From: a phage
Sequence record: PZ452584.1
DNA: 64,000 nt
Reading direction: 5' to 3' (one strand)
Positions 37,514 through 41,466 of the stretch are shown here, piece by piece. A program made the position numbers and the translations under genes. The notes below the pieces were generated by a model. The model had not been told where the DNA came from and searched no databases. It saw nothing but the letters and a program-made list of their open reading frames with translations. Within the stretch, counting starts at the first letter, position 1, and each line of letters opens with the position of its first letter.

Positions 37514-37703
37514 AAGTTTTCCATGGTAAAGGCAGTTTAGTTTTCTTTACTGTTAGTTCAATATCAGGATTCTTTTCTCTTAATTTAAGGCATTCCTCCC
37601 AAGCTCTGATTTCACTAGTGAATACACAAAATTGCCCATTACTAGTACCGACTAAACCACTATTTACAATAATAATAGCCCAAGTTTCATGATGCCACGC
37701 CAT
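37506..37703 (-). CDS. Hypothetical protein (cd.5 position)
   Basis: 65 aa. Confidence 0.55.
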   Translation of the reverse strand: MAWHHETWAIIIVNSGLVGTSNGQFCVFTSEIRAWEECLKLREKNPDIELTVKKTKLPLPWKTYE

Positions 37704-38608
37704 TAAAAATCTCCCGAGTCAACTTGCCAGCATTCAACACCGATGCGGCGCCACATTTCAACTACTTGAGTTCGGTCATCAATAGCTAATTTCACATCAA
37801 AATGTGGTGCGATGTGTTTCCAAAAAATTTCTTCTTTAACTACATCATCTTTACGGGTATCGCCTTGTTCGCGTTGACATTGCATAACTAATGGAACGCC
37901 AGCAATGTCCTCAACCCATTTACGGGTCATACGATAATATTTCGTTGGGTCTTCTTCAGTTCCACTTTCACGGCCTGAAACGACTACGATTTGATAACCC
38001 ATAAAAGCATACATCTTAGACAGTTCAACAACCATGGGATTAATAATATCGGTATCACATTTTTCAAGGTCATAAGGACCGCGACCATTCATTTTTGCTA
38101 ATGTACCATCAACATCAAAAATAACTGCTTTTGGTTTACCAGGAGTCCCTTTGTATACCGGAAGACCGAGATATTCCCGCATGCTTTTATACATTGAGCG
38201 TAAAACATCAATTGGTACTGCTTTAGTTCCGCGTTTTGAGTTACGTTTAACCAATTCAGTCCAAGGAACATCAAACACTTTATGTTCAACTTTCCAGCCG
38301 TATTCTTTGGCAAAAGTTTCCCATGCTAGGCGACGTTCGGGATTCAGGTTAGTATCTGAAATGATTACGCCCTTAACAGAATCACCGCCGTACAGAATAC
38401 TTTTAGCTGTATCAAACTGCATACCAGTTACGATACCTTCTTTCTTTTTGGTATACTTGTACTCATCGCGTTCTTCATGACCCATGATGGATTGACGATA
38501 ATCATCACGATTGATATTATAAAACCCGGGATTCTTAGCAATAAATTCACGAGCCCAAGTACTCTTACCAGAACCAGGACAGCCAATAGTCAAAATAATC
38601 TTTTTCAT
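37703..38608 (-). CDS. pseT: Polynucleotide 5'-kinase / 3'-phosphatase
   Basis: P-loop [12 protein letters not shown] phosphatase motif DVDGTL; 301 aa from MKKIIL. Confidence 0.95.
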
Positions 38609-38910
38609 CATTTAATTCCTAAGAAAACTTCAAGAATACGAATATTATGCTCACGCCGTCCTTTGTACAATTCAGCTGTTGATTGATTCACTGATTTACT
38701 CTGAACATTGGATGAAATAAATTTTATCATGTGATTTTTAAGCTGATACATATCAAGCCCACGAGCTTTTGCTTCTTTTCGTAGAGCTTTGCCAGCATCA
38801 TCTAAAGCTTTAGCATGTTCAATGTCTTCGCTAATGCTTGATACATTTTCACGGCATACGTCAATGTAACGGTCCGAGCATTCAATATAACGCTCTAGCA
38901 GAGTTTTCAT
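38608..38910 (-). CDS. Hypothetical protein (pseT.1-like position)
   Basis: 100 aa. Confidence 0.6.
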
Positions 38911-39137
38911 TTATTTTTCTCAACCAATGATTGAATATAATCATGCAGGTCTTTAGATGCTTTACCCCACTTATTTTGATATTCATTTTTAAGATTAGCC
39001 CGAGATTGAGCTAATAAAACATCATTAGTTGGAGGTAAAGATTCTAATCGTTGAATCTGACGTCCATAAATCATTGCAGCCATCTCAGATTCATAAATCA
39101 ATCCTTTGAGATGTTCAAATTGATGCCATGAAATCAT
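38907..39137 (-). CDS. Hypothetical protein
   Basis: 76 aa. Confidence 0.55.
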   Translation of the reverse strand: MISWHQFEHLKGLIYESEMAAMIYGRQIQRLESLPPTNDVLLAQSRANLKNEYQNKWGKASKDLHDYIQSLVEKNK

Positions 39138-39433
39138 TTACATTTATCCTCTTTTAACTCTTGACGATAATAACATATCATAGTTTTTTGGTCATGTACA
39201 TATCGTTTTACATCATTAAGCCAAATACGAAATTCCTGGGAATCTTCAAATGGCATACCGACCCAAGCTTTACCATCAATAACTTTAACTTGCCAAGATA
39301 GTTTAGCTTCATCATATGACTTTATTTGTACAGGCCAATTAGGATGAACTGTTTCTTTCTTTACTTCTAGAGGCTTTGTCGAACAACCAACTAGAAGACC
39401 AATAGATAATATTACTGCCGATAGTTTAATCAT
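39134..39433 (-). CDS. Outer-membrane spanin (lipoprotein)
   Basis: 99 aa; signal peptide with lipobox LLVGC; adjacent to i-spanin candidate. Confidence 0.75.
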   Translation of the reverse strand: MIKLSAVILSIGLLVGCSTKPLEVKKETVHPNWPVQIKSYDEAKLSWQVKVIDGKAWVGMPFEDSQEFRIWLNDVKRYVHDQKTMICYYRQELKEDKCK

Positions 39434-39783
39434 TTAGAAAGGTCCTGGATGTCTTCTGCGAACTTGTTGAAGGAGTTGTTGATTTGTTTTTCAACCAATC
39501 CTGGCTTATGAGCCACCACATCCGCCTTCTTTGCATCTTTGCGCAGTTTTTCATTTTCACGCTCAATAGCAGCAATTGCCTCACGATTTTTATTATTCAT
39601 CGCATCAATATAATTATACTGAATTCGCAAATTATCTAATGCTAAAGCGTTTTCATTGGCTGTTTTTGTAATTTCAGTAACTGATGTTTCTAATCTTTCT
39701 ACCTTATTTTTTAAAATAATAGATGTTCCACCCAATGCTATTACAATTAATAGTAAACCTGCTGTCGTATTACTTAATTGCAT
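39430..39783 (-). CDS. Inner-membrane spanin (N-terminal TM, coiled coil)
   Basis: 117 aa; hydrophobic N-terminus then coiled-coil-like sequence. Confidence 0.75.
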   Translation of the reverse strand: MQLSNTTAGLLLIVIALGGTSIILKNKVERLETSVTEITKTANENALALDNLRIQYNYIDAMNNKNREAIAAIERENEKLRKDAKKADVVAHKPGLVEKQINNSFNKFAEDIQDLSK

Positions 39784-40280
39784 AAAGTTTTAATAACCTC
39801 TATAATATCGTCTTGAGAAAGACCGTTAATTAAAATATGATGTTCAGCTGGAGATTTAGAAATTTTAAAGCATGCCTCAACATCTTCTGCCATATCCGAT
39901 GCACTACGATTTGGATTACTAATTCCAAGACGATGCTTTCCAGTCAAAGGATTAACGATGATATAGCATTTGCAGCTATTGATATGAACATTGGGCTGAG
40001 TCTGATTAATGAACACTTCGCAATCATACTTAGCGAGTTGATTTTCTAAAAAGACTTTCATCTCTTCAACCGCATCAGGAAGCATATCACGGGCTTGCTC
40101 AAGACGACGATTTCGATATTCTTTAATGGTCGTTTTCCGCTTGACTTGCTTAGCTAAATCTTTCTTAAGATCGGTGATATATCCAACTCGACGATTTCCT
40201 TTGAATACAGAAATCCCATCTGTAGTATCACCGTATGCTTCAACGACCATTTCAGTAGTAATAAGCTGCAAATCCATCAT
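39774..40280 (-). CDS. alc: Alc, host transcription termination factor
   Basis: 168 aa; position between spanins and rnlA; early promoter cassette upstream. Confidence 0.85.
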   Translation of the reverse strand: MMDLQLITTEMVVEAYGDTTDGISVFKGNRRVGYITDLKKDLAKQVKRKTTIKEYRNRRLEQARDMLPDAVEEMKVFLENQLAKYDCEVFINQTQPNVHINSCKCYIIVNPLTGKHRLGISNPNRSASDMAEDVEACFKISKSPAEHHILINGLSQDDIIEVIKTLCN

Positions 40281-40284
40281 AAAG

Positions 40285-40338
40285 TCCTCATGTTATGTCA
40301 GTAAGACTACTATAACACAACACGAGGGACTTGTAAAC
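40285..40338 (-). repeat. 54-bp early promoter + leader cassette, copy 2
   Basis: Identical to 25628..25681. Confidence 0.9.
40309..40338 (-). promoter_or_regulatory. Early promoter for alc (second copy of cassette)
   Basis: Identical to promoter at 25652..25681. Confidence 0.7.
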
Positions 40339-40341
40339 AGC

Positions 40342-41466
40342 TTAGTATCCTTCTGGGATAAATTTTTTATAATTTTTCAAAAAATTCTGTTCGATTTCAC
40401 ACATGACCTTTTCTTGACTATCGTACCCCTGGTATAGACTCATAATGATACCGAACAGGTGATCCATTCCAGCACCTTTAGCAACGCCTTGCGCTTCCAT
40501 TGCATAAGTCTTTCTATCTTTGCCGCAATGCTTATTGTGACAGTCAAGAACTAAAAACAGAGCTCGGTCTAAGTACTTCAGATAAGTCGTTTCAAATGCT
40601 TCAATTTTTCTGTATGAATATTCATCATCGGCGTACATTGCTTTAAGATCATCTGATGCTCCATCAATGATGGTCTTAAACAATTTTTCTGGATTATCTA
40701 ATGAACTTTTTGTGCTATGAAGAGACACATACCAGTCAGACTTAATTTTAAAATGAGAACCATCTTTCATCACGGCAACATAGCCTTCGATGTTTTCTGC
40801 ATTTTTAGCTTCTTCAACCCATTTAGGGCTATCGACTTCGTATCGTTCAACTAAATATGGACGAAGAACAGCATCTTTATAAATATCATCGTATGAAATG
40901 TATTCACCCGTTTCGTTTTCACGAATATTCAATAAAATGATTTTCATCTCTTGATAAGCAAGAACGATTCTATTAGTTGGAGCGACGAATTCAAAGTTAG
41001 CAGTAAATCCATCTTCAGCTAATTCTTTAAGTCTGTCACGCAATTGGTGATGATTAATGTTCATCAAAATTCCATTAGCCATTAAAGCCTGTTCAGATTT
41101 GATTGAACCCTTTGATTTGAACAGAATTTCATCACCGTCTAAATAAGTTGATACCAAAGACCCATCTTCTTTTGTTAGAATGTAATCAACATCATTTAAA
41201 TCGATATTCATCGTGAATGGATTTTCATTCAAGTTAAAAAACTTTTCCATGGGACGAGAGGCAATTCTTACCGGTTTTTCTCCATCCATTTCAAACATGA
41301 TTCCACGACATTCTAATGCGTCTGGAAGTAACCAATCAGAATAAGATGCATAATTATATGAGAAAATTCTGTAAGTTCTTCCAGATGCACTTACATCATC
41401 TGAGTAAAAAAACTTACGCTGTGAATCCTTACATAGTTCCATTAAATTGTTAAAAAGTTCTTGCAT
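40342..41466 (-). CDS. rnlA: RNA ligase 1 (tRNA repair)
   Basis: Start at MQELFNNL, 374 aa; track ORF includes 12-aa upstream extension. Confidence 0.93.

Follow-up and report, generated by a model that had tools for sequence, protein, structure and literature searches.

Within the 64,000-nt stretch of phage DNA analysed here (sequence record PZ452584.1; hereafter the window), the initial annotation had placed the tRNA-repair genes pseT and rnlA on either side of a spanin pair and alc, and had remarked that one more small ORF seemed to lie between pseT and the spanins than in T4. We asked whether this ORF is a gene and, if so, whether it was gained by this phage or lost by T4. Our answer, to which we assign a probability of roughly 0.9 as a whole, is that the block is a canonical T-even one and that the extra ORF is a genuine ancestral gene, which T4 lost by deletion.

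The source of the window is a Tequatrovirus, that is, a T4-like phage, and positions 37703-41466 form an ordinary, already annotated T-even pseT-to-rnlA block with the following features:

37703-38611, minus strand: pseT, polynucleotide 5'-kinase/3'-phosphatase (Pfam HAD_PNKP, 9.5e-59, and AAA_33, 2.1e-23)
38608-38910, minus strand: the extra ORF, 100 aa, RB32ORF217c / phrog_2364 family (phrog_2364, 2.9e-53, residues 1-100)
38907-39137, minus strand: pseT.1, conserved hypothetical protein of 76 aa (phrog_2347, 1.4e-42)
39134-39433, minus strand: pseT.2, o-spanin, outer-membrane lipoprotein (phrog_812 "Rz-like spanin", 3.5e-43; 99% identity to T4 PseT.2)
39430-39783, minus strand: pseT.3, i-spanin with an N-terminal membrane anchor and a helical periplasmic domain (phrog_739 "Rz-like spanin", 8.8e-38; 94% identity to T4 PseT.3)
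39774-40280, minus strand: alc, inhibitor of host (cytosine-DNA) transcription (Pfam PF17527 ALC, 7.9e-92; 98.8% identity to T4 Alc)
40309-40337, minus strand: sigma-70-like promoter match, TTTACA-17-TATAGT, TG-extended, in the rnlA-alc intergenic spacer (consensus scan, 10/12 matches)
40342-41466, minus strand: rnlA (gene 63), RNA ligase 1 and tail-fibre attachment catalyst (NCBIfam TIGR02308 equivalog, 2.4e-190)

The ORF listing, Pfam, PHROGs, NCBIfam and tblastn with T4 proteins place all genes of the block on the minus strand. The interval first proposed for the block runs exactly from the stop of pseT to the start of rnlA, and the spacing of about 1.7 kb given for the two repair genes is 1,730 bp when counted from the start of pseT to the stop of rnlA. 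From pseT.3 through to pseT, each gene overlaps the next by ATGA, whereas the overlap between alc and pseT.3 is 10 nt; these tightly packed genes probably form an early/middle block transcribed leftward in the order rnlA-alc-pseT.3-pseT.2-pseT.1-(RB32ORF217c)-pseT. Promoter and terminator scanning of the region returned as many sites as shuffled sequence would be expected to give, and the entry at 40309-40337 is to be read as a consensus match only; an Rfam scan of the whole window gave zero matches.

Gene order, strand, ATGA overlaps and catalytic and structural residues are shared with T4 (NC_000866, 134002-137464). By tblastn the named proteins share 94-100% identity with those of T4, with no loss of catalytic residues, lipobox, transmembrane segment or essential cysteines. 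Family models and T4 identity thus agree that pseT and rnlA bracket the spanins and alc. All of this (a tRNA-repair pair, spanins, Alc and, as described below, dispersed lysis genes) is textbook knowledge for T4 and has little import beyond correct annotation.

PseT is 98.0% identical to T4 PseT across 301 aa (tblastn) and has the two-domain layout of that enzyme, with a P-loop kinase (AAA_33, residues 6-149) followed by a phosphatase (HAD_PNKP, residues 160-302); PDB entry 1ltq matches it over its full length (2.3e-206). The kinase residues K15, S16, D35, R38 and R126 and the phosphatase residues D165, D167, R176, R213, D254 and D278 are the same as in T4. None of the six substitutions that separate the two proteins falls at these residues, which published mutagenesis of the T4 enzyme identifies as essential. 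The gene begins with a tandem ATG-ATG, in contrast to the single ATG of T4, whose start corresponds to the second ATG, at 38608. For rnlA, the listed ORF extends to 41502 from an upstream GTG, and the ATG at 41466 agrees with the T4 start. Its product scores 632 bits against the TIGR02308 equivalog (cut-off 242), contains the RNA_lig_T4_1 (PF09511) and T4_Rnl1_C (PF20819) domains of Pfam, matches PDB entry 2c5u (6.5e-254) and is 98.7% identical to T4 RnlA (tblastn), with K99 (the adenylylated Lys99 of KxDG) and ten further essential residues as in T4. Alc was likewise correctly expected between the two repair genes: PF17527 spans residues 2-167 at 306 bits (cut-off 25), a full-length match.

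The mechanisms of PseT with RnlA, and of Alc, are established for T4, and near-identity suggests that they carry over to the present phage. After the host anticodon nuclease PrrC has cut tRNA-Lys, PseT would remove the 2',3'-cyclic phosphate and phosphorylate the 5'-OH, and RnlA would then reseal the cut tRNA; on DNA that contains cytosine, Alc would halt the RNA polymerase of the host.

The remark about an additional ORF was correct as a comparison with T4. In the T4 RefSeq sequence pseT and pseT.1 abut, and pairwise alignment leaves a clean 301-column gap in T4, so that the gene counts differ by one, the ORF at 38608-38910. An ATGA joins it to each neighbour, combining its start codon with the stop of pseT.1 and, at the other end, its stop codon with the start of pseT. 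PseT.1 itself is 100% identical to T4 PseT.1 across 74 aa (tblastn), and its C-terminus reads EKNK in the present phage and EKK in T4.

One might suspect a chance reading frame whose protein is never made, since neither Pfam nor NCBIfam has a match to it and searches of the literature for RB32ORF217c, RB69ORF231c, phrog_2364 and VOG4758 found no papers. Its evolution argues strongly otherwise. Compared with RB14 there are only synonymous differences (0 nonsynonymous changes, pS = 0.11), and dN/dS ranges from 0 to 0.11, being 0.03 in the comparison with teqsoen and about 0.1 in that with Mosigvirus; in comparisons with other genera synonymous sites are saturated, yet 32 columns are invariant. 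AlphaFold2 predicts a four-helix bundle with confidence (pLDDT 95, pTM 0.86; helices at residues 2-20, 26-49, 54-70 and 76-96), and the ATGA overlaps at both ends fit the operon pattern exactly. Because of the dN/dS values and the AlphaFold2 model we rejected a spurious ORF, the chance of which we consider negligible, and conclude that this is a genuine gene under purifying selection that encodes a small soluble cytoplasmic four-helix protein.

Nor is the gene new: hundreds of genomes already carry it under the annotation RB32ORF217c or as RB69ORF231c-like. The protein is 100% identical to RB14 ORF219, "RB32ORF217c", which the RB14 annotation describes as "similar to RB69ORF231c". We found it encoded in 709 phage records at 37-100% identity, including T2 and T6, where it occupies the same position. 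Among the best 60 of 634 records matching the T4 pseT.1/pseT junction, that junction is uninterrupted in 16 (T4 records, T4T, RB55 and RB59); records 17-60, T2 and T6 among them, have an insert of 300-318 bp, as do most Tequatrovirus isolates. IMG/VR held 0 junctions of the exact T4 type and 5 of the window type.

An alternative is that the T4 order is ancestral and that the ORF entered the present lineage recently, as a moron or mobile cassette. Many mobile small ORFs are known in T-even genomes, the boundaries of the segment are sharp, and a short direct repeat flanks it that could be read as a target duplication. The distribution does not fit: the 709 records extend across Tequatrovirus, Mosigvirus, Gaprivervirus and an unclassified Yersinia phage of the Tevenvirinae, always beside pseT, and absence is seen, among those best 60 of 634, only in the 16 T4-lineage records. 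Furthermore, the proteins diverge, to as little as 37% identity, in step with the phages, which points to vertical descent, and the identity bands already suggest that a tree of the ORF would be congruent with that of pseT or of core genes. An accompanying endonuclease or integrase is absent, and the GC content of the segment (0.34-0.37) is the same as that of its surroundings. We rejected insertion on the distribution and regard it as very improbable.

Since the uninterrupted junction occurs in only 16 of the best 60 of 634 records, T4 appears to be the outlier, having lost a gene ancestral to the T-evens, as judged from distribution rather than from a rooted phylogeny. Hence possession of the ORF does not set this phage apart but is normal in T-evens, with T4 the exception. 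"Extra relative to T4" is not the same as "novel"; the T4 reference is atypical, since it lacks a gene on which purifying selection acts strongly in essentially all of its relatives.

The direct repeat also offers a route for the loss. The 7-nt sequence ATGAAAA is present at both ends of the segment, at the start of the extra ORF and at the start of pseT, and in T4 and its laboratory and sibling isolates about 301-302 bp would have been deleted between the two copies. A simple crossover at ATGAAAA predicts GAGAAAAATAAATGAAAAAG, whereas the actual T4 sequence has one A more (GAGAAAAAATAAATG...), so that this route also requires either one further 1-nt change or a parent with another allele.

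Although RB14/RB32 (FJ839692, RB14ORF218-224) has a pseT-rnlA gene content identical to that of the present phage, including the extra ORF, RB14 carries RB32ORF214c between cd.2 and cd.3, which the window lacks. Judged from match spans, the T6 insert is shorter (about 300 bp) and that of T2 longer (about 317 bp). One segment within the ORF is variable:

38813-38861, minus strand: variable cassette of the extra ORF at about aa 17-33, which covers the loop between helix 1 and helix 2 and separates the 100-aa from the 106-aa allele

Against DNA of phage teqskov this cassette is unalignable, with an 18-nt length difference, in contrast to flanks of about 95% identity or better. Protein alignment gives the same hotspot, which is also the block of lowest pLDDT in the AlphaFold2 model (80), and the allele differs among Tequatrovirus lineages. 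In teqsoen and teqskov a "repeat_region" covers the N-terminal coding stretch inside the ORF; it appears to be an automatic annotation.

Searches for relatives of the protein gave no lead to what it does. PHROGs places it in a family of unknown function alone, and a sequence profile search of the PDB gave nothing below E = 0.08. Among 1.84 billion representative proteins, 9 were recovered with an HMM at E <= 0.001, and 4 of these reached at least 1e-10; the four weakest, proteins of 329-1,288 aa, align through several separate short segments and are probably spurious. In a Foldseek comparison with viral models its own family was the sole match. The family is confined to enteric T-even phages, beyond which informative relatives in sequence or fold were not found. 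The protein is most likely a non-essential early accessory factor, whose variable helix 1-helix 2 loop would contact a partner from the host or the phage.

A more specific possibility is that it acts with PseT, for example as a modulator of tRNA healing or as a counter to a second anticodon nuclease, which would explain the persisting translational coupling to pseT. The ORF stop/pseT start ATGA overlap recurs in Gaprivervirus VR25 and Yersinia phage MHG19, where the ORF lies immediately upstream of pseT with a 4-nt overlap despite an unrelated ORF of about 160 aa in the pseT.1 slot. Its 709 records also compare with about 785 that have PseT at 60% identity or more, and it is undetectable in more distant pseT-bearing phages; the variable loop, in turn, resembles an interaction surface under diversification. 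However, T4 repairs PrrC damage through PseT and RnlA alone, without the ORF, and in Mosigvirus p000v one small ORF and about 120 nt separate it from pseT. ATGA overlaps link all neighbouring genes between pseT.3 and pseT, so the coupling is nothing particular to the ORF and pseT, and the HMM, PDB profile and Foldseek searches found no link in fold or sequence to RNA-repair or nuclease-inhibitor proteins. We consider a partnership with PseT unlikely. The broader suggestion, of a conserved protein that is either a translationally coupled PseT partner or another counter-defence or host-takeover factor, with a hypervariable loop that recognises a variable host target, is also unlikely. If it were true, the textbook T4 model would be missing a component used by other T-even phages, and the ORF could lie behind part of the difference in defence sensitivity between T4 and T2/T6. 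The ORF of T2 or T6 is a cheap knockout target for the cataloguing of T-even accessory and anti-defence genes.

The identification of a lipoprotein and a transmembrane protein as the o-spanin/i-spanin pair holds on the PHROGs spanin families and on T4 identity. The lipobox on which it leaned is present in PseT.2 (LVGC, residues 14-17), followed by Ser at +2 and then Thr, without the Asp at +2, as in outer-membrane sorting, and its Cys is preceded by a hydrophobic segment (residues 1-15) containing Lys3. Cysteines are found at 17, 87 and 98, and Cys87 and Cys98 are essential in the T4 o-spanin (PMC6139136). PseT.3 has a single N-terminal hydrophobic segment (residues 10-24, mean Kyte-Doolittle 2.71) and zero cysteines; beyond the segment it is charged and helical, with weak matches to coiled-coil families. 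It differs from T4 PseT.3 by seven substitutions, the majority of which fall within or close to the membrane anchor. The genes are adjacent, i-spanin first, with an ATGA overlap, as in the separated two-component architecture of the T4 PseT.3/PseT.2 family.

Like lambda Rz/Rz1, this is a two-component spanin, and the T4 PseT.3/PseT.2 pair complements Rz/Rz1 mutants and can replace those genes (PMC6139136). Unlike in lambda, the genes are separated rather than embedded, sequence similarity to Rz/Rz1 is absent, and the present i-spanin lacks cysteines where the o-spanin has two essential ones. With 94-99% identity to the T4 orthologues, PseT.3, anchored in the inner membrane, and PseT.2, in the outer, would be expected to form a periplasm-spanning complex that disrupts the outer membrane as the last step of lysis.

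The lysis genes had also been described as dispersed, with rIII beside gene 31 and the holin t beside gene 38. Both adjacencies are found:

34491-34736: rIII, 100% identical to T4 and adjoining gene 31
34887-35219: gene 31, neighbour of rIII
62008-62793: gene 38, T2-type adhesin (PF05268)
62824-63480: holin t, 99.5% identical to T4, directly after gene 38

Such dispersal in T4, like the spanin identity of PseT.3/PseT.2, has already been published (PMC6139136). The description requires one qualification, in that the gene 38 next to t encodes a T2-type adhesin that is not homologous to T4 gp38.

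Within 36.5-43 kb of the window, all substantial ORFs are carried on the minus strand (ORF listing of the window). We named the genes by family models and by comparison with T4, taking identities from TBLASTN searches with T4 proteins and from global alignments; they follow in transcription order, nrdB first.

Genes of the pseT-rnlA region (window positions, strand, description)
41957-43135, minus: nrdB, Pfam Ribonuc_red_sm
41519-41953, minus: denA, 99.3% identity with T4
40342-41466, minus: rnlA, RNA ligase 1 (Rnl1), NCBIfam TIGR02308 equivalog (2.4e-190), Pfam RNA_lig_T4_1 and T4_Rnl1_C
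39774-40280, minus: alc, PF17527 (7.9e-92)
39430-39783, minus: pseT.3, phrog_739, Rz-like spanin
39134-39433, minus: pseT.2, phrog_812, Rz-like spanin
38907-39137, minus: pseT.1, phrog_2347
38608-38910, minus: 100-aa ORF, phrog_2364, family of unknown function
37703-38611, minus: pseT, polynucleotide kinase/phosphatase (Pnkp), Pfam HAD_PNKP (9.5e-59) and AAA_33
37506-37703, minus: cd.5, Pfam T4_Y13H (PF25744)

The initial annotation described pseT and rnlA as a tRNA-repair pair about 1.7 kb apart that brackets the spanins and alc. Family models and identity with T4 confirm the block and support that interpretation: the intervening distance is 1,730 bp, and the noted span of 37703-41466 has the pseT stop and the rnlA start as its exact end points. 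Its content is known biology and known annotation throughout, and among deposited genomes the best match to the 4.2-kb region has at most 97.8% identity.

PseT (98.0% identity, 6 substitutions), RnlA (98.7%, 5 substitutions), Alc (98.8%) and PseT.1 (100% across 74 aa) are all close to their T4 counterparts. In global alignment the window matches T4 at every residue known from T4 mutagenesis to be essential in Pnkp (K15, S16, D35, R38, R126, D165, D167, R176, R213, D254 and D278) and in Rnl1 (R54, K75, F77, K99, G102, K119, E159, E227, G228, K240 and K242). Each enzyme aligns along its entire length with a solved T4 structure (PseT, 1ltq, 2.3e-206; RnlA, 2c5u, 6.5e-254). The pseT start consists of two successive ATG codons (MMKK..., 38606-38611), the first of which overlaps the stop of the 100-aa ORF; T4 pseT has only the second.

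The i-spanin gene pseT.3 precedes pseT.2 and overlaps it by ATGA, which is the 'separated' spanin architecture. PseT.3 is 94% identical to the T4 protein, and most of its 7 substitutions fall within or close to the N-terminal anchor; apart from a single hydrophobic segment (residues 10-24) it is charged and helical, and it contains no cysteine. PseT.2 (99% identity) begins MIKLSAVILSIGLLVGC-ST; residues 14-17 form the lipobox LVGC, and the Ser at +2 means that the protein is not retained in the inner membrane. It also contains Cys87 and Cys98. Kongari et al. 2018 (PMC6139136) showed that the T4 pair pseT.3/pseT.2 complements lambda Rz-am Rz1-am and that T4 PseT.2 requires both of these cysteines. 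The lipobox therefore appears functional, in keeping with the o-spanin assignment. Codon 86 of pseT.2 is Ile in the window; the T4 RefSeq sequence has an ambiguous base N there (7175-7177 of comparison record L001), annotated 'Ile or Thr'.

The lysis genes are dispersed, as had been proposed: outside the spanin block, rIII (34491-34736, 100% identity with T4) and gene 31 (34887-35219, 100%) are 150 bp apart, and holin t (62824-63480, 99.5%) begins 30 bp past gene 38 (62008-62793). Gene 38 encodes a T2-type glycine-rich adhesin (PF05268, 2.6e-69, and Gp38_N), and TBLASTN with T4 gp38 found no match anywhere in the window. The tail-fibre tip (58680-62793) is T2-type, and the gene 37 product (1102 aa) has just 34.7% identity with T4 gp37 across its N-terminal 743 aa.

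The window does carry one small ORF more than T4 between pseT and the spanins. In T4 RefSeq (NC_000866) the pseT start (134907) abuts the pseT.1 stop (134908) with no ORF between, and alignment with the window leaves one clean 301-column gap corresponding to the 100-aa ORF, flanked on both sides by identity of about 95% or better. We correct only the perspective: carrying the ORF is normal, and T4 is the deletion mutant. By TBLASTN, 709 phage records encode the ORF, with identities of 37-100%, including an identical copy in RB14, annotated 'RB32ORF217c ... similar to RB69ORF231c'. The 301-bp T4 junction sequence matched 634 records; among the best 60 of these it was uninterrupted in the 16 top-ranked (T4 records, T4T, RB55 and RB59) and fell in two pieces spanning about 602-621 bp in rows 17-60, T2 and T6 included, implying an insert of 300-318 bp; a few further losses may occur beyond these 60 records. 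In IMG/VR the exact T4-type junction was not found (n=0), against five instances of the window-type ORF/pseT junction.

Sequence conservation and modelling lead us to regard the ORF as a real gene. It has no nonsynonymous differences from RB14 at a synonymous divergence of 0.11, and its dN/dS is 0.03 against phage teqsoen and about 0.1 against Mosigvirus; compared with VR25 and MHG19, synonymous sites are saturated, yet 32 alignment columns are invariant. AlphaFold2 (22-sequence alignment) predicts a four-helix bundle (helices 2-20, 26-49, 54-70 and 76-96; mean pLDDT 95, pTM 0.86). Neither a hydrophobic segment nor a lipobox was found, which adds to the case for a real gene and makes the product probably cytoplasmic.

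Pfam and NCBIfam gave no match, a PDB profile search nothing with E < 0.08, and Foldseek against viral models the ORF's own family alone (Yersinia phage fHe-Yen9-01, RB69ORF231c); we found no papers on the family. An HMM search of 1.84 billion representatives returned 9 proteins at E <= 0.001, of which four reached 1e-10 or better; the weakest four look spurious, being long proteins with several short matched stretches. Within Tequatrovirus the gene has a 100-aa and a 106-aa allele, whose DNA is about 95% identical or better outside a replaced cassette at 38813-38861 (49 nt, versus about 67 nt in phage teqskov). The cassette covers approximately aa 17-33, the loop between helices 1 and 2, a pattern suggesting a surface that binds a partner and undergoes exchange or diversification.

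In Gaprivervirus VR25 and in MHG19, an unclassified Yersinia phage, the ORF directly precedes pseT and overlaps it by 4 nt; in Mosigvirus p000v one small ORF separates the two genes. An unrelated hypothetical ORF of about 160 aa fills the pseT.1 slot in VR25 (2022-2504 of record L006) and MHG19 (2019-2504 of record L007), so that adjacency to pseT is kept more strictly than pseT.1 itself. In VR25 a MobE-like nuclease gene overlaps the pseT 3' end on the opposite strand. A functional link to PseT might be entertained, tentatively, but tRNA repair in T4 proceeds in the absence of the ORF, and genes throughout the stretch from pseT.3 to pseT overlap by ATGA. We counted PseT homologues in 2,121 phage records, of which about 785 reach at least 60% identity, against 709 records for the ORF, which is thus confined approximately to the enteric T-even subset.

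The simplest history is ancestral presence followed by one deletion in the T4 lineage. ATGAAAA bounds the segment at both ends, at the ORF start and, within the pseT start ATGATGAAAAAG, at the second ATG, and T4 could have lost the ORF by deletion between these short direct repeats, which the boundaries fit. In the preceding A-run, actual T4 has one A more than the predicted product.

In the nrdB/td region the homing-element load is below that of T4, since nrdB (41957-43135) and td (46009-46869) are each one uninterrupted ORF, Rfam detected no group I intron or other RNA family across the 64 kb, and T4 I-TevIII, mobE and nrdB.1 had no match in the window. RB14 (FJ839692) agrees with the window at the ORF beside pseT but disagrees between cd.2 and cd.3, where it carries an additional 175-aa ORF, RB32ORF214c (5939-6466 of comparison record L003), that the window (36973-37035), like T4, lacks; this indicates a mosaic relationship between the two phages.
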